From: an uncultured virus (IMG/VR IMGVR_UViG_3300050035_000427)
Lineage: Duplodnaviria; Heunggongvirae; Uroviricota; Caudoviricetes
Virus record (IMG/VR): IMGVR_UViG_3300050035_000427
Reading direction: 5' to 3' (one strand)
DNA length: 64,000 nucleotides
Shown here: one piece after another, positions 2,291 to 33,022 of the stretch
How positions within the stretch are numbered: the stretch's first letter is position 1
Layout: each line of letters opens with the position of its first letter
Made by a program: the position numbers and the translations under genes
The notes under the pieces: generated by a model
The model's database searches: none
What the model saw: the letters and a program-made list of their open reading frames with translations, nothing else
What the model was told of the DNA's origin: nothing

Positions 2291-3339
2291 TTTCGGTTGC
2301 CCACTTGGTGATGATTCCATCCCAGGGTGTCTTCTGAGAGTTTGCTCTCTTCCAGGATGCAACGCGGCGGTCCCAGGATGACGATTTGTACTTGTTCACA
2401 GCCTCTACGAAATCCTTGGGAAGTTCAATCTCGATCTTGTAGTAGGACTCAGTCTGCTTGGCATTGAACGGAGCAACCAATGCTCTGGCTTTCTTCAGAT
2501 AATCACGGAGCCAGCGAAGCTCAGTGTCAATCTTGGGATCGTCCTCATCCTTCTTGAGAGCATCGTTCATCAAGCGAAGCAAGCTGGTGCAGTAGTTGGT
2601 ACGAGGAGTGCTGTACTTCAGATCTCTGAATTTGTCTTCCTTTTCACTACCTGCCAGAGCCGCTTCCATCTCCGCACGATACTTTTGGAGCTTTCCGTAC
2701 TCAACCGCTGTGAGATCAGCACCTTCAAGTTTCTGACCACACAGCTTCTCATACTTCTTTATGATCTCTGGCATGCGATTATTCTTATCATCTGCCAGAA
2801 GTGAAAGTAGCAGTTGCTCGAGCTCAGGCCACCGCTTGGGAGCAATGTGAGGAGGAGACGTCCATCTCTCTTTGGAACCATAGGAATTTGTGTTATTGAA
2901 CGCGAACTCGCCTGAAGTTCCGCCGTAGTAATACATCATGTCGTAGTCATCTTTGACTGCAATCATGGCTGCTTCAAGACTAGCATCACGCTCCTTGTAA
3001 TTCTTGAAAGCGTTGAATGTCAGCACATCTCCGAATCTCGTAGAACAGCAAGCCAGAACGAGGTCATGAAGATCCTGGCGCCAAGGCGACGAGCATCTGT
3101 AGTAGTATTGCTTGAGGAAGGCCTCCAGCTTGTTTCCGACCTTTTCGATGCCGGTAGTCTCAGTGTCGTATGAATCCTTGGTAGTCGGAGGCGGAGTTGC
3201 CACTCCCTGCTTCAGCAAGGCAATTGCTGCTTCTTCGAACTCTGGCCAAGGCTTCTCAGCATTGACTCTGAGATAGGTGTTGCTAACGAAGTTCTGTTTG
3301 TAATAGGTGAGGACTGCCTGCAGGTCGTTCATGGTCATC
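2253..3339 (-). CDS. hypothetical protein, possibly 5' truncated
   Basis: long ORF with internal PW/RWPE(F/L)E repeats; the 5' extension in the ORF track overlaps Y-RNA-like elements; no RBS. Confidence 0.7.
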
Positions 3340-3352
3340 TTCTGCAGCAGGG

Positions 3353-3389
3353 GTCGAACCAAAGATAACCCAAATCTAACGGCTCGTAC
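3353..3389 (-). ncRNA. truncated 5' end of a Y-RNA-like element
   Basis: GTACGAGCCGTTAGATTTGGGTTATC matches the 5' motif of the adjacent copy; complementary 3' strand missing. Confidence 0.5.
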
Positions 3390-3398
3390 AAAACTTTC

Positions 3399-3547
3399 TG
3401 CACATGAACGAAGAGCGAACTGGAAAATTGTTGGACACTGTAAAAGTACTCTTGAGCTAGCATCCCGAAAGATGGAAATACTCAGGAGAACGACAGTCAA
3501 TGACCGCCACAGTTAGGTAGATAATCCAATCCAACGGCTCGTGTGCA
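3399..3547 (-). ncRNA. Y RNA (YrlA)-like RNA
   Basis: terminal stem TGCACACGAGC/GTTCATGTGCA, GCCG...TTATC motif, internal hairpins. Confidence 0.6.
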
Positions 3548-3648
3548 AACTGTGGGCAACCCACCGGGCTGCCTCTGGACTATCGATACGCTGAATATTC
3601 AGAAAAGTAAACACTTTTAATTGAACATCTGACTTTTTGCTCCATTGT

Positions 3649-4455
3649 ATGGAATGTTCATACTGCCACACCAATCCTTGTAGACCAGGCTTCGACACCT
3701 GCAGTCGTAGTTGTGCTTCCTCTAGAGCCAACAGTAATCGAAAACTATCTGAGGAGACTAAAGAGAAAATTAGAAGAACTCTTCAATCCAAGTATCCTGT
3801 CAGAAAATGCCCTATATGTGAAAAATTGTTCCGTCGTAAACAAGAGTACTGCAGCAGGTCTTGTGACATGAAATCTAGAATGAGAGATCCTGTCCAGAGG
3901 AAAGCAGTGTCTGATTTTATGAAATCTGCTCCTCATAAGGGCTGGAAATCGAGATCGATGTCCTCCTATGCAGAGCTGTTTTGGATTGACATTCTCGCTA
4001 GAGAACAAGTCAGCTTTATCCGTGAAAAAGTCATGTCAAAGAAGAGCTTAGGAATTGAATCCTCCGGAAGCTATTTCCTCGACTTTTTCTTTCCTCAATT
4101 GAACCTAGATTTAGAAATAGATGGTAGCCAACATCTCAATCCTGTGGCAAAAACCAAAGATGACGAACGTGATTTAATCCTAGAAAGAAATGGGATTCAT
4201 GTTGTGAGAATGCCTTGGAAGGGATTGACCAGACATCTAAAATTCACATTTTCACAAGTGGAAGAAGTTCTTATAATGGTCGGGGTGAGGCATTTCGAAA
4301 GCCCAACCTCATGTTCCCAAAACATGTGCTCTACCCTTGAGCTACACCCCGACATGTTAAACCTTTTCTGCGTGCCGGATTTGACCGGCGTTTCCGTCCT
4401 CAATGGACGGCGTGCTGTCCGCTTACGGAATCCTGCCCAGGCGATGCGTCTATAG
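3649..4455 (+). CDS. DUF559/Vsr-like PD-(D/E)XK homing endonuclease, antisense within tRNA operon 1
   Basis: CSRSC zinc motifs, YFLDFFF..LDLEIDGSQH...DDERD..L..NGIHVVR; 3' end reads antisense through tRNA-Pro. Confidence 0.85.
   Translation: MECSYCHTNPCRPGFDTCSRSCASSRANSNRKLSEETKEKIRRTLQSKYPVRKCPICEKLFRRKQEYCSRSCDMKSRMRDPVQRKAVSDFMKSAPHKGWKSRSMSSYAELFWIDILAREQVSFIREKVMSKKSLGIESSGSYFLDFFFPQLNLDLEIDGSQHLNPVAKTKDDERDLILERNGIHVVRMPWKGLTRHLKFTFSQVEEVLIMVGVRHFESPTSCSQNMCSTLELHPDMLNLFCVPDLTGVSVLNGRRAVRLRNPAQAMRL
4277..4351 (-). tRNA. tRNA-Pro(TGG)
   Basis: cloverleaf; anticodon arm CATGT-TT TGG GA-ACATG; CCA encoded; imperfect T stem. Confidence 0.9.
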
Positions 4456-4534
4456 CCACAAAGTCCAGACATTCTACCTGCTGCCCTTTGTTCTCACCCG
4501 TCGGCAAGATCTCAGGCTCTATTGCACTATCGCA
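4368..4534 (-). ncRNA. tRNA-like element with ~100-nt insertion in the D loop
   Basis: TGCG/CGCA end stem, GTGC/GCAC D stem, CCGTCC/GGACGG arm, GCCGG-TCAAAT-CCGGC T-like arm. Confidence 0.5.
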
Positions 4535-4539
4535 AACTT

Positions 4540-4616
4540 TGGTCGGGATAACTGGATTCGAACCAGCGACCTCACCCACCCCAAGGGTGCGCTCTACCAG
4601 GCTGAGCCATATCCCG
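4540..4616 (-). tRNA. tRNA-Pro(GGG)
   Basis: cloverleaf; CACCC-TT GGG GT-GGGTG; GGTTCGAATCC; CCA. Confidence 0.95.
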
Positions 4617-4713
4617 ACAAACTGTGCCGCGTCCGATGTTGTCTCTTGTCAACTTGAGGCTGGTTGGCTCTTCAAGTCACATCCTAGTGCGGCTTACTAC
4701 GCTCTTCAAACTT

Positions 4714-4788
4714 TGGTGGACTCGAACGGGATTGAACCGCCGACGCCAACCTCTTCAGGGTTGCGCTCTACCACTGAGCTACGAGTCC
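4714..4788 (-). tRNA. tRNA-Phe(GAA)
   Basis: cloverleaf; CAACC-CT GAA GA-GGTTG; CCA. Confidence 0.95.
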
Positions 4789-4803
4789 ACATACAGCAAA
4801 AAT

Positions 4804-4880
4804 TGGTCGGCGTGGTCAGATTTGAACTGACGGCCCCTTGTTCCCGAAACAAGTGCGCTACCAGGCTGCGCTACACACCG
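4804..4880 (-). tRNA. tRNA-Pro(CGG)
   Basis: cloverleaf; CTTGT-TT CGG GA-ACAAG; CCA. Confidence 0.95.
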
Positions 4881-4991
4881 ATGTTACATAGCACAGTTGT
4901 CTAGGATTGGAGAACGGAATTGTGTGAGGAATTTCTTCTCACCCTCCTGCTAGAGCAACTGGCGTCGCCCGAGGAGAGGAGTCTTTAGGAC

Positions 4992-5051
4992 TTAACCCTC
5001 CGCGAGCCTTGCAGGTTGCGGTCGAAATCGAAATGTTGGTCGCATTCTCAT
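4992..5051 (-). CDS. putative leader peptide of tRNA operon 1 (MRMRPTFRFRPQPARLAEG)
   Basis: ATG 8 nt after promoter GTAGA (leaderless); contains CCA, CCG, CCT and 2x TTT matching the downstream tRNAs; hairpin over stop codon. Confidence 0.6.
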   Translation of the reverse strand: MRMRPTFRFRPQPARLAEG

Positions 5052-5059
5052 GATCTCAC

Positions 5060-5087
5060 TCTACTGACCTGGTTCGAAAACCGGGTA
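5060..5087 (-). promoter_or_regulatory. phage promoter motif copy 2 (tRNA operon 1)
   Basis: TACCCGGTTT-N13-GTAGA. Confidence 0.6.
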
Positions 5088-5135
5088 CAAATCGATGATA
5101 CCTCAGTTTTTGGAAATACGGGAAGAAAAATTTGC

Positions 5136-5297
5136 CTAGGACATCCAACCACGAAAACGGAGCTTGGTGGGAGCATCCTCTAGAAGCTGTTTGCCCATAC
5201 GACGCATGGCCTTGGCCGCGAACTTCTTGCGGAATTGACGAGCCTTGCTGGGACGCTTGCAGCTGACGTCGATCTGCTCAATGGAGACGAATTTCAT
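5136..5297 (-). CDS. small basic hypothetical protein (53 aa)
   Basis: AAAGGTG RBS; MKFVSIEQIDVSCKRPSKARQFRKKFAAKAMRRMGKQLLEDAPTKLRFRGWMS; below the ORF-track cutoff. Confidence 0.7.
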   Translation of the reverse strand: MKFVSIEQIDVSCKRPSKARQFRKKFAAKAMRRMGKQLLEDAPTKLRFRGWMS

Positions 5298-5369
5298 GTC
5301 TTCACCTTTTCTGAGCTATACTGAACTCAAGTTCACTGAATAAGTGAAACAGTCGTTGAAAAGTGTATC

Positions 5370-5663
5370 TTAATCGTTGAAAAGTGTAACCTTGATGCCG
5401 CGAGCCTCAGGAACGGTGCGAAGACTTTCGCGAGTGGGAATCAGTTCGTATGCCAGCAGGTCGCCTTCTTCATCGCGAACCACGTTGTCGACTACGAAAG
5501 TCACTTCTTTGCGTCCAACAATCACCAGGCCCTCATCGCAGGCATCAGGATAAACCCGCTGGAAAATGCTGCCGCCACCTTGAAGATCGCTCAGTTCGGC
5601 GCAAAGGACCGTTTGTCCGTCTTCCGTGGTCTTGGTGAATTTCTGGATGCTAAAAGTTGCCAT
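5370..5663 (-). CDS. hypothetical protein
   Basis: GAGGAGG RBS, promoter motif upstream. Confidence 0.8.
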   Translation of the reverse strand: MATFSIQKFTKTTEDGQTVLCAELSDLQGGGSIFQRVYPDACDEGLVIVGRKEVTFVVDNVVRDEEGDLLAYELIPTRESLRTVPEARGIKVTLFND

Positions 5664-5684
5664 TTGTCATTCCCTCCCTCATTC

Positions 5685-5712
5685 TCTACTGACAGAGAAC
5701 TCGGATCGGGTA
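5685..5712 (-). promoter_or_regulatory. phage promoter motif copy 3
   Basis: TACCCGATCC-N13-GTAGA. Confidence 0.65.
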
Positions 5713-5720
5713 ACAGACCG

Positions 5721-6263
5721 CTAGTCCTTCCACTTTCTGTTCTTGCGACCGATCTGCTTCATCCTCTTCATCCACTTGTCCATCAGCATCGAACGATCCA
5801 GCTTCTTCAGGTAGTCCACGATCAGGACTCCGTTCAGATGATCGATCTCATGCTGAATGCGGCGAGCCTCTTCACCAGTGAAGGTGCGGCTGAATGGAAT
5901 GAGCTTCACTTCCGGATCGTCATCCTCACCAATTGCGGTGATCGTGATTTCCCGATAGCGAGGGACTGAAACCCTGATCTGCGGAAGGCTGAGACATCCT
6001 TCCAGCTTGGCATCCTTCTCTTCAGAGTGAGCAGTGATGACTGGATTGACCAGTCCTAGTAGCATTCCACTGTTGGACTGATAGACAATGATGCGCCGGG
6101 TATCTCCTGCCTGATTGGCAGCTAAACCAGCCGCCTTATGACTATCCACCACGATCTTCATGTAGTGCAGGATGTCGAGCGTGCCTTCGATATCAGCCGG
6201 GAAGTCCACCGGAATACACGGATGCAACAGGATTGAATCTGGGTACTGCTTTACTGGCATCAT
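5721..6263 (-). CDS. def: peptide deformylase
   Basis: GLAANQ, EGCLS and QHEIDHLNG signature motifs. Confidence 0.95.
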   Translation of the reverse strand: MMPVKQYPDSILLHPCIPVDFPADIEGTLDILHYMKIVVDSHKAAGLAANQAGDTRRIIVYQSNSGMLLGLVNPVITAHSEEKDAKLEGCLSLPQIRVSVPRYREITITAIGEDDDPEVKLIPFSRTFTGEEARRIQHEIDHLNGVLIVDYLKKLDRSMLMDKWMKRMKQIGRKNRKWKD

Positions 6264-6387
6264 CTCTTTCCTTCTCTTCCTCGACATCCGGAGGGTTGCA
6301 ATCCGGGCAGGGAATGGTCCCCTTGCTGTTGCTGATAAACCCAACATCCTTACAATGCTTGCATTCGATACTCGGCTGCGGCTTCAA
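6193..6387 (-). CDS. small zinc-finger protein
   Basis: CKHC...CPDC. Confidence 0.5.
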   Translation of the reverse strand: MKPQPSIECKHCKDVGFISNSKGTIPCPDCNPPDVEEEKERDDASKAVPRFNPVASVYSGGLPG

Positions 6388-6485
6388 ACCCGATCCTCCC
6401 CATCATATTACTCTACTGACGACTAGGAAGACCAAACTTTCCTAGAGTACTCTTCTACGGAATGTCCAACAAAAGTAGCTACTGT

Positions 6486-6878
6486 CTAGAACTCCAGGCT
6501 CAGGATATGGTTTCGAATACTGGCCAAATTGGCTTTTGAGAGGATCTTCACTCTTGTTGGAAGGCTGCCACGCAGTTCACTCTCAGAAATTCCAGAGATC
6601 ATCATCACGTGTTTTGGTTTTGTGGATTCATCCCAGGTCAGGATCTCGTTCAGAAACTCCACTCCTGATACATAGGGCATCTGATAATCGCTCATCACGA
6701 GATCAAACGGAACTCCATCTATTGATGCGCGGCGGCAAGCTGATATTGCAGCACCGCCATTCCAGGTTGTCTTGATGTTTTCAGCAGAGTAACCCAGGTC
6801 TATGATCATAGTACATAGAGCATCCTGGATTTCCTTGTCATCGTCTACAACAAGGACTTTCACGTCTTTCACTTCCAT
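6486..6878 (-). CDS. single-domain response regulator (receiver/CheY-like)
   Basis: VLVVDDD, DLVMSDYQMP..SG.EF, MISG, LSK. Confidence 0.9.
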   Translation of the reverse strand: MEVKDVKVLVVDDDKEIQDALCTMIIDLGYSAENIKTTWNGGAAISACRRASIDGVPFDLVMSDYQMPYVSGVEFLNEILTWDESTKPKHVMMISGISESELRGSLPTRVKILSKANLASIRNHILSLEF

Positions 6879-9158: not shown

Positions 9159-9677
9159 CTAGTCATATGTGTCCTCAACTTTGGCAAAGAATTGTTTGAG
9201 AGATTCTACTTCTGGACGTTCGTAGAGCCGATTCTTGTGACCACAAGCCGGGCAGGTGAACTGACCTTCCCCAGAGTTCCAATAGTCCCCTTCAGTGCAT
9301 CCGGAAGGCGGAGTGTACCAATGTGTCTGAATGTATGTCAGTTGGTTGACAGGAAACTGGGCTCCACATCCGCTCCACTCTCCGCTGCCTCCAGTGATCG
9401 ACCACCCCAAACAAGTGATCAGTGTGGTCTTGGTGGCTTCACGCTCTCCAGCCCGGAGGATGCGGAGCTTCTCGTTCAGCTTTGCAATCTTGGCCCTGAT
9501 AGACAGCATCTCTTCAGAAGGAACGATCCCCTGGCGAGAGATTTCTGCATAGGGACTGTGTTCGCCCTTGTGGCCCTTGAGCAGATTACAGGTGAATCCC
9601 CACCGGAACTTCGCAATGTGTTTGTAGGGTTCGTCTGGTTCACGAACACTCTCCCGGCAAATTGTTGACCAGTCCAT
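9159..9677 (-). CDS. hypothetical zinc-binding protein
   Basis: CPACG and other Cys motifs; likely start MDWST. Confidence 0.65.
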   Translation of the reverse strand: MDWSTICRESVREPDEPYKHIAKFRWGFTCNLLKGHKGEHSPYAEISRQGIVPSEEMLSIRAKIAKLNEKLRILRAGEREATKTTLITCLGWSITGGSGEWSGCGAQFPVNQLTYIQTHWYTPPSGCTEGDYWNSGEGQFTCPACGHKNRLYERPEVESLKQFFAKVEDTYD

Positions 9678-9886: not shown

Positions 9887-10540
9887 TTACTTTTGACATT
9901 TCTTACAGTAGTTGCGAAATCCGGATGGTCGGCAGTTACAGCGGTAGAATTCGTCTGTGGGCAAGTATTCTTGATGCCCGCTGCACCAAGCAGTTCCTTG
10001 TGGAGCTAAATGATGTCTACCTAGTCTAAGTTTGAGAAGACCTTGGCTTATTTTGGATCTAGTATCGCCAGATCGTTCCTTACCCAACATAGGGTGACTT
10101 TTTGCATCCAGTTCTCTAACAGCTTTAGATACCGCACTACGTTGCAGTTGACCATTTGTTTTGCCATAACGATGATTCTTTGCTCCCATCTGAGCTTCAC
10201 TTACTTTCTTGCGAGCACTTTCAGTTAGACCACAACCACCATCTCCTCCCGGAGTCATGTTGTAGCCATACCCAGCTATGTTGGCTCTATACTGAGCGAT
10301 ATACATCTTTTCTTGATCGGCAAGATCTTGCTTTGAACCTATTCCTGAGGACAAAACGCTAATTTCAAACGTCTGCGCTCCGTATTTCCTCATAGCTCGG
10401 TAAAGGTAGCAATCTCCTCTTACAGCATCTCTCAGATGTCTTTGCCAACGATCTTTGACATGTTCTCCCACGAATTTTCCCACGTACACTTTGTTGTTAA
10501 CTGTATTCGTCACGAGGTAGACCAGCATGTCACAACTCAC
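9887..10540 (-). CDS. GIY-YIG homing endonuclease
   Basis: VYLVTNTVNNKVYVGK, GYNMTPGGDG, NUMOD3-like segments. Confidence 0.9.
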   Translation of the reverse strand: MSCDMLVYLVTNTVNNKVYVGKFVGEHVKDRWQRHLRDAVRGDCYLYRAMRKYGAQTFEISVLSSGIGSKQDLADQEKMYIAQYRANIAGYGYNMTPGGDGGCGLTESARKKVSEAQMGAKNHRYGKTNGQLQRSAVSKAVRELDAKSHPMLGKERSGDTRSKISQGLLKLRLGRHHLAPQGTAWCSGHQEYLPTDEFYRCNCRPSGFRNYCKKCQK

Positions 10541-11552
10541 AAATCTCTACAGCTTTGTCAAAGATTGAGTCATCGTCAGTAAGTGCTCTGAGCACTTCTA
10601 AGGCATCCGACGATTCAATACCTTCAACAGCCTCATCCATAACTGAAAAGAAGGCAGACATTTCGCCTGTTTTATTGCCTACCTTTTCCATTCCCTTGTC
10701 GGCCATCGTGAAGATAACTTCAAGTGGTTTCACAGGGATAGGAAGTTCCTTGTAAGCCATGCCCTTTTCAGAGAAGGAGAGTAGAGCCAAAGATACCGGG
10801 CGATCCACCTCATCCATATTTAGAGCCGCCCTTGCTACTGAGCCAAGATGAATATGTGTTACATTTCCCACTGTAACAGTTTCTTTTCTACTATGGTCAT
10901 GTCCCCAACATACAAAATCGTAGTCAGTTTCAGCCAAAGCAGGATAACCAATCGGGTTGTAAGGAATGCCTGTGTTACCGAAGGTCGCGTTCTCGGCATC
11001 CGGGTGACCATAGGCATGGAGTAATGCTATCCGATAGGTGACGCCCTGAGGACGAGGAGGAGCATCTAGGATAAGTGGAAGGAGCGCGGTCTCGTCACAG
11101 TAGGGATAGCCTTCCACCAGTACGGAGATGGTCTCATCACGATTGGTGAAAATGACAGAATTGTTCAAGAGATTCTGAAATGCACCGGAGGCCATGACCA
11201 CTCCAAGCGGCTGATGGGGAAGGGATTCCAGACTGTCCCAGCTTAGATCATGATTCCCTGGAATGCCCCAAAGTCCAAGAGGAAAGGTCTTCAGAATCTG
11301 AATGGTGTGACGAATCAGATTCATGGTGTTGCCTTGAGCTTTGGGCTTCTTGCTGTGGAAAAGATCTCCACCGTGCAGGCCCACGGCCCGGTACTTCACA
11401 CACATGCTTACCCAGTAACTTACCTTGCCCAAGATCGTGTCGGAATAGTCGTCCGCTCGACGGCCTGGAGGCACCGCGCAGACATGAGTGTCCGTTCCGT
11501 AGATGAAATTGATAGCATGGTGATCAATTTGGACTTTCTGGTACATATACAT
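10530..11552 (-). CDS. SbcD/Mre11-like metallophosphoesterase (gp47-like)
   Basis: TDTH, GGDLFH, PGNHD, WGHDH motifs. Confidence 0.9.
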   Translation of the reverse strand: MYMYQKVQIDHHAINFIYGTDTHVCAVPPGRRADDYSDTILGKVSYWVSMCVKYRAVGLHGGDLFHSKKPKAQGNTMNLIRHTIQILKTFPLGLWGIPGNHDLSWDSLESLPHQPLGVVMASGAFQNLLNNSVIFTNRDETISVLVEGYPYCDETALLPLILDAPPRPQGVTYRIALLHAYGHPDAENATFGNTGIPYNPIGYPALAETDYDFVCWGHDHSRKETVTVGNVTHIHLGSVARAALNMDEVDRPVSLALLSFSEKGMAYKELPIPVKPLEVIFTMADKGMEKVGNKTGEMSAFFSVMDEAVEGIESSDALEVLRALTDDDSIFDKAVEICEL

Positions 11553-12198
11553 GGTCCTATCTGGTGTGTACCGTATCGTTAACACAAGGAATGAAAACAC
11601 CTATGTTGGAAGTTCCTACAATGTGCAAGCTCGCATGCAAGTTCATCGCTACGAACTCAAGAAAGGAACTCATCCTAATCCTCACTTACAGAGATCCTGG
11701 AACAAGTATGGAGAATCTGCCTTTGTCTTTTCCATGATTGAAGAGGTACCAGTTCCTCATCTCTTGGAACGTGAAAACTACTGGATTCAATACTACCATT
11801 CCTTCGAGAGAGAACACGGATTCAACATCCTTCGCTATGCTCACAGTTGTCTTGGATATAGATGGACAGAGGACCAAAGAAGACATCTCAGTGAGAAAAG
11901 AAGAGGACATGTTTGTTCCGAGATCACCAGAAAACGAATAGCCAATTCTCACATTGGGAAGCATAGAGAAGTCAAGCCTGTAGAATTGCGACAACGCTGG
12001 TCTGAAATTAAGAAAGGAAAGACCAAAAGCGAAAGTTGGAAAGCTAAGATTGGAGAATCTCAACAAGGAGTAAAGAATCATCGTTTTGGTAAACGATGGA
12101 TGAGTCGTTATGACCATCATCCGATATCAGTTAGCCCGGATGAAATCGACAATTTGATACTCCAAGGTTGGCAGCTCGGAAGAAAGAAATTCAGTTGA
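11551..12198 (+). CDS. GIY-YIG homing endonuclease (inverted insertion)
   Basis: SGVYRIVN...TYVGSS, LQRSWNKYG, GFNI. Confidence 0.9.
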   Translation: MVLSGVYRIVNTRNENTYVGSSYNVQARMQVHRYELKKGTHPNPHLQRSWNKYGESAFVFSMIEEVPVPHLLERENYWIQYYHSFEREHGFNILRYAHSCLGYRWTEDQRRHLSEKRRGHVCSEITRKRIANSHIGKHREVKPVELRQRWSEIKKGKTKSESWKAKIGESQQGVKNHRFGKRWMSRYDHHPISVSPDEIDNLILQGWQLGRKKFS

Positions 12199-21572: not shown

Positions 21573-21592
21573 TCGTCTCTATTACTGGGTGA

Positions 21593-22633
21593 TTAGTAAT
21601 CCTTGTCTAACTCCTCAGAAGAAACCTTCTTCAAGTGAACCGTTGCTTTGATAGCCTTCTGAGTCTCCTCCCAGTACTTGTCCACTGAATGAGGGTCAAG
21701 TCCGTTGGCCTCGGCATACTTCTCCCAGAACTCCTCAGTTCTCGTCGCCTTGAAAGCATCGATAGCTTCCTGCTGTCCGGAAGTGTACTTTGGCTCCGGA
21801 GCTAGGATATCGTTCCAGCGATCGATGGTAAGAAGGAAATCAGGTGAATTCTTGCCACATCGTCCAGCAAGGCAGTAACCTGTGATGACTGGCCAATCCT
21901 GATGAGGATCGTATGGCCCTTCAAGATGCCACATCACGTCAAAGCGAGGAATCATACTCTCCCCGGAAGTATTTGAATCAGGAACAGCATACCTGGTATC
22001 TCCAAGATTCCAACCAGACCAAGACTGAGGAGGATTGTTTTCCAGTGAAGAATTGGGACAATTATCAATGAAGTCGCTGCCGATAACGACAGGTTTGTCG
22101 GATTTCAACTGAGTGACGACGTACTTCAATACATAGATGTTTAGTGAGCCTTCAACATACCGCTGATACAACCAGCCAGTCTTACGCTCGTACCAGTGAT
22201 CCCAGTAGTCGTTCTGCATAGTGTGAGACAAAAACTTATCGCCTTGTCCACAGAAAGAAAGAGCCTGATGAGGCCATTCAATCTTCTCCTCAGTCTTTCC
22301 GTAGATCTTCACATTCACTAAAACAGTCCCAATGGAGGTATCTCCGTTTGAAGACTGAGATCCATCTATTATATAGATGAGAGGTACATTTCCTAGAGGA
22401 GTTCCGGCACTATGCCGAGAATCAACGATATGATCCATCATGTAACTTACGTGTTGGGCATGTTCCTTTTCTGGATTGGCCAACCACACCATACCCCAGA
22501 TAGTGAAAATAACCACGCCCATTGCCAGCAAACTGAAGACCTTCAGCACATAGAAAGCTAGTTTGAATGGTGCCAGTAAGAACGCTGCTGCTTCTCCAAG
22601 CCAACTAAACTGTCCCATGATGTATCCCTCCAA
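21593..22633 (-). CDS. membrane-anchored hypothetical protein
   Basis: N-terminal hydrophobic segments; promoter motif upstream. Confidence 0.75.
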   Translation of the reverse strand: MEGYIMGQFSWLGEAAAFLLAPFKLAFYVLKVFSLLAMGVVIFTIWGMVWLANPEKEHAQHVSYMMDHIVDSRHSAGTPLGNVPLIYIIDGSQSSNGDTSIGTVLVNVKIYGKTEEKIEWPHQALSFCGQGDKFLSHTMQNDYWDHWYERKTGWLYQRYVEGSLNIYVLKYVVTQLKSDKPVVIGSDFIDNCPNSSLENNPPQSWSGWNLGDTRYAVPDSNTSGESMIPRFDVMWHLEGPYDPHQDWPVITGYCLAGRCGKNSPDFLLTIDRWNDILAPEPKYTSGQQEAIDAFKATRTEEFWEKYAEANGLDPHSVDKYWEETQKAIKATVHLKKVSSEELDKDY

Positions 22634-32242: not shown

Positions 32243-32380
32243 TGCACGAACGAAAAGTGAACTTCGTTTTTTAAGGCGTCCTAACCCCTAGACGACAGCC
32301 CCATGATTTGGCGGGGCCACCAGGATTCGAACCTGGGTATCCTCCTTGACAGGGAGAACAAAATTCTGACGGCTCGTGCA
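32243..32380 (-). ncRNA. YrlA-type Y RNA with circularly permuted tRNA-Asp-like domain
   Basis: TGCACGAGC/GTTCGTGCA stem enclosing anticodon arm (CU GUC AA), T arm GGTTCGAATCC, CCCCGCCA, linker, then GGGGCTG and D arm. Confidence 0.75.
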
Positions 32381-32478: not shown

Positions 32479-32511
32479 AAAACGAAAAGGACAGCCGCTT
32501 GGGCTGTCCTT
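32479..32511 (-). terminator. attenuator intrinsic terminator upstream of tRNA operon 2
   Basis: GGACAGCC-CAAGC-GGCTGTCC followed by TTTTCGTTTT. Confidence 0.85.
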
Positions 32512-32530
32512 GGTTGAATCTCGCTGAAGT

Positions 32531-32635
32531 TTAGCTGATTCGCACCAAGGACAGATGCCCGGTATCCACGCCCTCCGCTGCTTCAGCGGCGACGACCGTT
32601 GCAACTGCTCCGACGAATTCAACCATGCTCTTCAT
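32531..32635 (-). CDS. leader peptide of tRNA operon 2 (MKSMVEFVGAVATVVAAEAAEGVDTGHLSLVRIS)
   Basis: GGAG RBS; 19 of codons 5-26 are GNN; contains antiterminator strand CTGTCCTTGGT. Confidence 0.8.
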   Translation of the reverse strand: MKSMVEFVGAVATVVAAEAAEGVDTGHLSLVRIS

Positions 32636-32915
32636 GACAATCTCCATAATACTACGGATTTGCTCTCCGTAAACTACTATTTTTGCCACCAGGCAAAAGA
32701 TTTCGCGTGTAGGAGGATGATAGCCCAGACACTGGTGACCAGATGTGACTATCACCACTACACGCATCTCAAACTTTGCGACGGAGTTTAGCACCCTCTA
32801 AAGTGTCGCTCACTCCATCGTTCAGGAAGGTTTCGCACTTTCGCGTACACCTACAACCCTGTCATCTAGGACATCGCTGTTATGCTAGTTCATCGAAGCT
32901 CAATTTGTCGGCGAC

Positions 32916-33008
32916 CCGCTCTGGTCGTCCTGCGCTTCTGTTCGATCTTCCGACATGTTTCCATGCCTACCGTCTTCGAATTTCAGACCGCTCTGGTCGT
33001 CCTGCGCT
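32916..33008 (-). repeat. two identical 21-nt direct repeats (AGCGCAGGACGACCAGAGCGG)
   Basis: ccgctctggtcgtcctgcgct at ~32916 and ~32988. Confidence 0.85.
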
Positions 33009-33022
33009 ATCGCCTGATTACC

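Follow-up and report, generated by a model that had tools for sequence, protein, structure and literature searches.

Why phages carry transfer RNA (tRNA) genes, and how the expression of these genes is timed, is an open question. It arises in concrete form in an uncultured jumbo phage (IMG/VR record IMGVR_UViG_3300050035_000427), where a short open reading frame (ORF) with proline and phenylalanine codons lies ahead of an array of tRNA genes for Pro-CGG, Phe-GAA, Pro-GGG and Pro-UGG. Does this frame take part in controlling the genes behind it? We analysed a stretch of 64,000 nucleotides (nt), called the window throughout, which is part of a contig of 111,691 nt that was detected in peat metagenomes and has a CheckV completeness of 36%. 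Leader coordinates are given on the minus strand of the window, and the leader itself, 171 nt long, is numbered nt 1–171. Our answer is a tentative one: the interval may be the 5' leader of the tRNA operon and work as a terminator-less switch of the mgtP/mgtL type. The ORF would then be a translated leader ORF, kin by descent to codon-matched leaders at the other tRNA arrays of the lineage, and would still tune read-through into the tRNA genes by a structural switch that does without a terminator.

The ORF comprises 19 codons and a stop (MRMRPTFRFRPQPARLAEG; 4992..5051, minus strand) and reads ATG AGA ATG CGA CCA ACA TTT CGA TTT CGA CCG CAA CCT GCA AGG CTC GCG GAG GGT TAA. It uses the first ATG after a promoter-like motif, at 5051, 7 nt after GTAGAG and 8 nt after 5060. 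Pro is encoded at codons 5, 11 and 13, Phe at 7 and 9 and Arg at 2, 4, 8, 10 and 15. A first-pass annotation, made by a model from the letters, had pointed out this frame and its fit to the tRNAs, and both were found as described: CCA, CCG and CCT each have their own isoacceptor in the array, and both TTT codons are read by tRNA-Phe (GAA). At least three Pro and two Phe codons are found in 6 of the 232 ATG ORFs of 15–25 codons in the six frames of the window, and all three Pro isoacceptor classes are also covered in two of these; both counts include the leader ORF. For comparison, Pro accounts for 4.8%, Phe for 3.7% and Arg for 5.1% of codons in the long genes of the phage. By the ORF counts, the composition of the leader ORF is unusual at about the 1–4% level, which is not overwhelming, and the match is real but modest. 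CGA, present three times, is the rarest Arg codon in the long genes of the phage, and TTTCGATTTCGA is a 6-nt tandem duplication, which by itself yields F-R-F-R.

Upstream of the ORF lies the bipartite promoter-like motif TACCCG-N17-GTAGAG (5059..5087, minus strand), which stands out by its recurrence at a fixed spacing. TACCC-N18-GTAGAG occurs at three sites in the window with the same spacing (5087-5059, 5712-5684 and 33050-33022), compared to 0.02 expected sites, so that the motif claimed earlier for this position is indeed a recurrent one. On the whole 111.7-kb contig all five matches are exact TACCCG-N17-GTAGAG sites. The spacer of the motif before the leader holds a small hairpin, CCGGTT-TTCG-AACCAGG. 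A second haplotype of the locus, termed haplotype B, carries five substitutions in the motif, all of them in the spacer, and leaves both end blocks unchanged, which is the pattern expected of a bipartite promoter. A scan with the sigma-70 consensus called no promoter at 5059-5087. Promoter activity of TACCCG-N17-GTAGAG is putative; if GTAGAGT served as the -10 element, the start of the transcript would coincide with the A of the ATG or adjoin it.

We determined the folding of the leader RNA by prediction. The 171-nt leader folds with -51.6 kcal/mol at a z-score of -2.15, and 6 of 200 shuffled sequences did as well. Hairpin 1 (nt 45–85; 4967..5007, minus strand) contains 15 base pairs (bp) and is present in the minimum-energy as well as the centroid fold. 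Its left arm is made up of the last five leader codons and the stop, its right arm contains CUCUCC, and in the minimum-energy fold GGAGGG (5001-4996) pairs with CUCUCC (4978-4973). Masking the left arm was used as a mimic of a terminating ribosome: hairpin 1 survives when nt 1–42 are masked and is gone with nt 1–54 or 40–75 masked. The right arm, CCUCUCC, then finds an alternative partner in AGGAGGG (4942..4948, minus strand; pairing spans nt 73–109), which was obtained in all three masked folds when the first tRNA was included. Two mutually exclusive pairings of this kind had been proposed for the leader; both are possible, but the alternative one did not prove robust across the masks, as set out below. 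In a second predicted hairpin (hairpin 2, nt 89–162; 4890..4963, minus strand) the partners of AGGAGGGUGAG are CUCAC and UCUCC, and CCAGUUG is paired to CAACUG. Below 4937, the 3' half of hairpin 2 belongs to the haplotype of the window alone and contains a C-rich, G-poor tract at 4902-4931, whose 30 nt include 12 C and 1 G; among 63,954 windows of 46 nt, 799 (1.2%) are as extreme. None of the predicted conformations forms a terminator, and the scan of the minus strand from 4000 to 6600 agrees with the earlier observation that a U-tract terminator is missing. Since there is no terminator, the mechanism of a classical attenuator cannot apply.

A switch built from these elements might work as follows. 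If a ribosome lingers on the early codons for Pro, Phe or Arg (nt 4–30), hairpin 1 would be free to form; with hairpin 1 in place, AGGAGGGUGAG would pair with the downstream CUCAC/UCUCC, the C-rich tract would be buried and transcription would continue. A fast ribosome at the stop codon would open hairpin 1, allowing CCUCUCC to pair with AGGAGGG. The C-rich tract would then be exposed to Rho or to a nuclease, and the yield of tRNA precursors would fall. Which way the switch acts, and through which factor, is guesswork, and a dependence of the Pro/Phe leader on Rho is pure inference.

The case for a leader function gains from the other tRNA arrays of the lineage. When leaders matching other clusters were searched for, as the first-pass annotation had suggested, a strong one was found at the Val/Gly/Asp/Ala/Glu array of the window. 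Its ORF of 34 codons (MKSMVEFVGAVATVVAAEAAEGVDTGHLSLVRIS; 32635-32531, minus strand) directly precedes genes for tRNA-Val, two tRNA-Gly, tRNA-Asp, three tRNA-Ala and two tRNA-Glu, and 20 of its 33 codons specify Val, Ala, Glu, Gly or Asp. A sigma-70-like promoter, TTTACG-N16-TATTAT (within 32487-32673, minus strand), lies upstream of it, a canonical terminator was detected by scan at 32511-32487 (minus strand), and the segment CTGTCCTTGG within the ORF can pair with the left arm of this terminator. The leader region is identical in the relative G003. Between the motif at 33050-33022 and this leader a direct repeat of about 21 nt, AGCGCAGGACGACCAGAGCGG, is seen by eye in two copies (32925-33010, minus strand).

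Three further leaders were found in Tunturiibacter phage Tunturi_5 (PP885688.1, 308,711 bp), which is the closest cultured relative in the phage collection, with an SbcD identity of 46%, has about 40 tRNA genes and infects an acidobacterium (PMC11924767). In this genome (L091) the leader of array 1 (1157-1307) has 16 of 31 codons matched to the array, that of array 2 (9223-9389) 25 of 36, and that of array 3 (21574-21783), annotated as hypothetical protein gp308, 37 of 48; each is accompanied by a terminator-like hairpin with a U-tract. Taken together the four siblings have 52–77% matched codons, and at most one null ORF per genome stretch is as good. In all of them the ORF is positioned after an upstream motif containing GTAG and before the first tRNA, and a terminator precedes the first tRNA in four of four, compared to none for the Pro/Phe leader. 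The idea of a repeated design therefore stands as far as matched leaders with terminators recur at the other array of the window and at three arrays of Tunturi_5, but the match of the Pro/Phe leader itself is much weaker. Since four of four sibling arrays have clear leaders, the prior against a chance ORF before the Pro/Phe array is raised. Full-text literature searches returned no published description of these sibling leaders, and the word "leader" occurs 0 times in the Tunturi paper (PMC11924767).

One of the siblings also resembles the Pro/Phe leader in sequence. The residues TFRF occupy codons 6–9 both in the leader ORF and in the leader of Tunturi_5 array 2 (MQHVSTFRFAVPATAG...), an array that includes the Phe tRNA of that phage and a Pro tRNA. 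Within these codons the DNA differs at three places, all of them synonymous third positions (TTT/TTC, CGA/CGT, TTT/TTC). An in-register run of four is found in 1 of 297 ORFs of similar length, namely the leader itself, and in 2 of 800 ATG ORFs of 8–200 codons. Alignment of the two leaders at the DNA level gave nothing credible. On this evidence we lean towards descent of the ORF from the leader-ORF family of the lineage.

All searches together yielded four copies of the Pro/Phe leader, in the window and in L002, L096 and L097, which represent two haplotypes. The 97-aa gene upstream was used as a query against IMG/VR and gave five loci, with the leader present in only two; a search with a 25-nt word of tRNA-Phe gave two contigs, and one with the neighbouring 310-aa gene four contigs, the same four that an SbcD alignment returned. 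The peptide deformylase gene gave 80 loci, and the best two (L006 and L007), when examined, were both without a related array. Scanning JGI metagenomes with an alignment of the 97-aa protein produced eight loci, two of which (L096 and L097) are identical copies of haplotype B; of the other six, which include L101 and L103, the four scanned for tRNAs (L098, L099, L100 and L102) have none in the available flank. Seven distant homologues of the 97-aa gene (L003-L005, L098-L100 and L102) likewise have no tRNAs nearby. The degenerate pattern GTAG..ATG-N15-ACNTTYCGNTTY hit 84 stretches in IMG/VR, and in the 80 examined no tRNA lies downstream, and hence no further TFRF leader beside tRNAs came to light.

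The ORF is identical in all four copies. No column varies in the ORF and one in hairpin 1, compared to about 11 of the 83 columns that precede them. The haplotypes differ by a single-nucleotide polymorphism at 4967 and separate at a junction at 4937, after GGGTGAGA. Haplotype B (L002, L096 and L097) keeps hairpin 1, with one closing pair fewer, as well as a GGUGAGA:UUUCACC pairing.

Several observations weigh against a working switch. Codons for amino acids served by the array make up 5 of 18 (28%), which is under half, lies far below the 52–77% of the siblings and is reached by 12 of the 287 ORFs used for comparison. Codons for Pro and Phe are spread out (5, 7, 9, 11 and 13) with no tandem run, and a ribosome stalled at the last two Pro codons would cover some of hairpin 1's left arm, which blurs the proposed logic. 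No clear Shine-Dalgarno sequence precedes the ORF; given a transcript start at or next to the ATG, translation would be leaderless or nearly so, and such a start, which translation of the ORF needs, is unproven. No terminator-like site was detected on the minus strand between 4000 and 6600, and this counts against the leader since the sibling on the same phage has a canonical one. In folds of the leader alone, the CCUCUCC:AGGAGGG pairing is formed under only one of the three masks. When any offset is permitted, four residues in common with one or other Tunturi_5 leader are found in 10 of 297 null ORFs. Since the other copies are all nearly identical, selection on the ORF cannot be demonstrated. 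Moreover, in three of the four copies a gene for a DUF559 homing endonuclease (564 nt; L002 6668-7231, minus strand, antisense to the leader and the tRNAs) lies between leader and tRNAs. It replaces the leader from nt 115 onward, including the C-rich tract and the whole 3' side of hairpin 2. In a further relative, L094 (7815-7830), the first codons of the deformylase gene are joined straight to the middle of tRNA-Pro (GGG), so that about 1.7 kb is missing, comprising three protein genes (deformylase, 97-aa and 53-aa), the leader and two tRNAs (Pro-CGG and Phe); the join reflects a natural deletion or else a chimera of the assembly.

The Arg codons add to these difficulties. Five of them (AGA, three CGA and AGG) are not explained by the array and, as noted at first sight, the window has no tRNA-Arg at all. 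A third array (array C: Lys-UUU, Arg-CCU and Arg-UCU) is located about 105 kb away on the same contig, and its two Arg tRNAs would read AGG and AGA; among the tRNAs of the 111.7 kb there is no reader of CGA, which leaves three codons uncovered. The suggestion that Arg tRNAs had been lost from the array at an apparent break near 3352 found no support, since in the available DNA none of the four relatives covering it (L002, L094, L096 and L097) has one there. The break itself is a true mosaic junction, at which L002 and L094 diverge from the window. Tunturi_5 possesses a tRNA-Arg (ACG).

Much of this evidence would also suit a locus that has ceased to switch. The ORF and hairpin 1 may derive from a genuine attenuator that lost its terminator when the array was rearranged, with homing endonucleases moving in and out, and expression of the operon would now be constitutive, with the promoter-like motif and read-through out of the upstream genes as its sources. 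We regard such a decayed relic as somewhat unlikely. It accommodates an in-register TFRF that speaks for descent together with the absence of the terminator found in four of four siblings, and a codon match diluted to 28%. The locus is moreover a hot spot of mosaicism, with endonucleases on either side, swapped tRNA alleles, the junction at 3352 and L094, which looks like a deletion form; haplotype B places another 520 nt between leader and tRNAs, where no terminator-like site occurs on that strand, and an RNA library yielded a contig that extends without a gap from 4786 to 5601, albeit with possible carry-over of DNA. Decay sits less well with an ORF and a hairpin 1 that are kept in four copies while about 11 of 83 upstream columns vary, an argument that is weak as the copies are very close, and with array C, whose leader also lacks a terminator detectable by scan, so that leaders without terminators may be a working variant.

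The frame could also have arisen by chance in a tRNA precursor whose structured 5' leader is an ordinary one, with a promoter, hairpins that serve processing or stability, removal by RNase P and no translation at any time; this we judge unlikely. The random-frame ORFs that match as well (12 of 287) or contain three or more Pro and two or more Phe codons (6 of 232) speak for it, as do the lack of both a Shine-Dalgarno sequence and a terminator, the absence of a match to Rfam, the 6-nt duplication TTTCGATTTCGA that alone gives F-R-F-R, the 10 of 297 null ORFs sharing four residues at any offset, and the fact that our searches returned no diverged relative to show that the frame is kept. Chance would, however, have to supply several coincidences jointly: a first ATG at the expected start point of the motif, Pro and Phe enrichment before a Pro/Phe array, each Pro isoacceptor once, a synonymous in-register TFRF (1 of 297) and a stop inside a hairpin, all in a lineage in which four of four sibling arrays have clear leaders. 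That the 19-residue peptide, which is basic and rich in Arg and Pro, is a product with a function of its own and stands before the tRNAs incidentally is very improbable. Real protein genes do occur inside the tRNA arrays of this phage (Cys_rich_CPCC, E 1.2e-22) and the peptide is identical in four of four copies, but with 19 residues and no ribosome-binding site it is too short for a family search, and nothing points to a peptide function. Returning to the terminator-less switch, we consider it likely that the locus is either such a switch in working order or a decayed relic of an attenuator.

Parts of the stretch are contained in six metatranscriptome runs, from which assembled contigs were used; starts, ends and strand of transcripts are not readable in these. 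One contig covers 4786-5601 without a difference and comprises the 97-aa gene, the motif, the ORF, the hairpins and tRNA-Pro (CGG), which fits read-through from upstream, although carry-over of DNA in the library is possible. In two RNA runs contigs stop at 4966, and a further contig begins at 4937. As these positions coincide with the haplotype polymorphism and the haplotype junction and are exactly k-1 apart, we read them as branch points of the assembly graph and not as RNA ends. In X16 and X17 the depth per contig is greater downstream of 4966; this difference cannot be localised, and no conclusion was drawn from it.

The tRNA genes were called with ARAGORN and Rfam. The first gene of the array, tRNA-Pro (CGG) (4804..4880, minus strand; Rfam 62.7 bits), begins 111 nt after the end of the leader ORF and is followed on the same strand by tRNA-Phe (GAA) (4714..4788), tRNA-Pro (GGG) (4540..4616) and, as the last one, tRNA-Pro (UGG) (4277..4351). 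At the gathering thresholds Rfam reported only tRNAs in the window; a permissive scan of 3300-5400 gave no family in the leader, and a YrlA match (19.9 bits) falls on tRNAs. The last protein gene before the leader is a 53-aa ORF without family match (5136..5297, minus strand), which shows one synonymous difference in haplotype B. The motif ACGAGCCGTYRGAWTT has three sites in the window (3372-3387, 3527-3542 and 32362-32377, minus strand) where 0.01 were expected; two are located just downstream of the Pro/Phe array and one just after tRNA-Val of the other array. In array C (L088, contig 110400-111691, minus strand) protein ORFs lie between the tRNAs, the stop of each being the TAG of the GTAGCTCAG of the next tRNA, and the Cys_rich_CPCC ORF mentioned above sits between the two tRNA-Arg genes. 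Upstream of this array a GTAGAG block, an Arg-rich ORF of 17 codons and a 13-bp hairpin are present; the contig ends 228 nt upstream.

Besides at least 17 tRNA genes, the contig carries many homing-endonuclease genes, a peptide deformylase and an SbcD-like nuclease. At the far side of the Pro/Phe array a DUF559-type homing-endonuclease ORF (3637..4455, plus strand; Pfam DUF559 E 6.8e-07, PHROG HNH/homing endonuclease) runs antisense through tRNA-Pro (UGG). In the two haplotypes the DUF559 genes thus lie at opposite ends of the array, and the tRNA adjacent to each, Pro-UGG or Pro-CGG, is a diverged allele; haplotype B has different alleles of both genes. This looks like co-conversion of tRNA genes driven by the endonucleases. 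We also asked whether leader nt 115–171 are the scar of a deleted homing-endonuclease gene, and this was not established: against the insert of haplotype B the best local alignment reaches a score of 20, which was attained by 41 of 500 shuffles. Mosaicism is seen elsewhere in the window, too. At 10530-11600 the relatives L190, L094 and L191 have a 310-aa gene that is 94–95% identical and, in the same contigs, an SbcD that is 65–76% identical.

Ribosome-sensing leaders before tRNA arrays would mean that a phage gauges the speed of decoding codon by codon and tops up the tRNAs that are scarce; full-text searches found no published account of such leaders at phage tRNA arrays. In its widest form the idea is that every tRNA array of this acidobacterial jumbo-phage family is gated by a translated "test" ORF of its own, composed of codons read by that array, the Pro/Phe array through a second, terminator-less design in which the speed of ribosomes on Pro/Phe/Arg codons selects between hairpin 1 and CCUCUCC:AGGAGGG and so determines whether Rho or a nuclease gains access to the C-rich tract. 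We hold this generalisation to be rather doubtful; if it were true, the Pro and Phe tRNAs would be resupplied only when host decoding of those codons fails, for example under a tRNA-targeting defence. The Pro/Phe locus is the weakest of the set and is of interest as a possible second design or, alternatively, as an example of how a switch decays when homing endonucleases reshuffle tRNA arrays. The other array of the window and the three arrays of Tunturi_5 are the cleaner cases, and since Tunturi_5 is cultured these can be tested.

How does the Pro/Phe leader compare with known systems? Classical attenuators (trpL, hisL and pheL; pheST) consist of a short ORF after the promoter, rich in codons of the pathway concerned, a set of mutually exclusive hairpins and an intrinsic terminator. 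Like trpL, hisL and pheL, the phage leader has a short codon-enriched ORF right after a (promoter-like) motif, and the end of the ORF overlaps the first hairpin; unlike them it has no intrinsic terminator, its codons are not in tandem, and its output is tRNA genes instead of biosynthetic or synthetase genes. With the siblings (window 32635-32531 and Tunturi_5 arrays 1–3) it shares the lineage and the position, and with array 2 also TFRF, whereas it differs in codon match (28% versus 52–77%) and in having no GC-rich hairpin with a U-tract before the first tRNA. Since a strong clustered codon match and a terminator are both missing, we class it neither with the classical attenuators nor with the siblings. 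T4 SegB is described as a free-standing homing endonuclease in a phage tRNA region (PMC2330249). Common to both cases are endonuclease genes lodged within a cluster of phage tRNAs and the exchange, from one haplotype to the other, of the tRNA alleles beside them; the enzymes here are of the DUF559 type, SegB is GIY-YIG, and the parallel bears on the history of the locus and not on the function of the leader.

The closest counterpart in design is found in Salmonella. There, mgtP is a 17-codon leader ORF in the mgtCBR leader with three consecutive Pro codons and a Shine-Dalgarno sequence; the codons at its end make up the left arm of a stem-loop for which a second pairing exists, no intrinsic terminator is present, a Rho-type step is suspected, and mgtL of mgtA is a related leader (PMC3641672). 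Measured against this description, the phage leader differs in that its Pro codons stand apart from one another, interspersed with codons for Phe and Arg, no Shine-Dalgarno sequence is apparent, the output is phage tRNAs in place of bacterial protein-coding genes, and there is no sequence relationship. What it shares is a short ORF (19 versus 17 codons) with three Pro codons, whose final codons supply one arm, the left, of a stem-loop that has another (here predicted) partner, and a leader without an intrinsic terminator in which a Rho-type mechanism is only suspected, as in mgtP. Apart from the consecutive Pro codons, the marks of the mgtP/mgtL type, a Pro-codon ORF ending in a stem-loop with an alternative fold (predicted here) and no terminator, are thus found in the Pro/Phe leader, which, if it works, would probably do so in the manner of mgtP.

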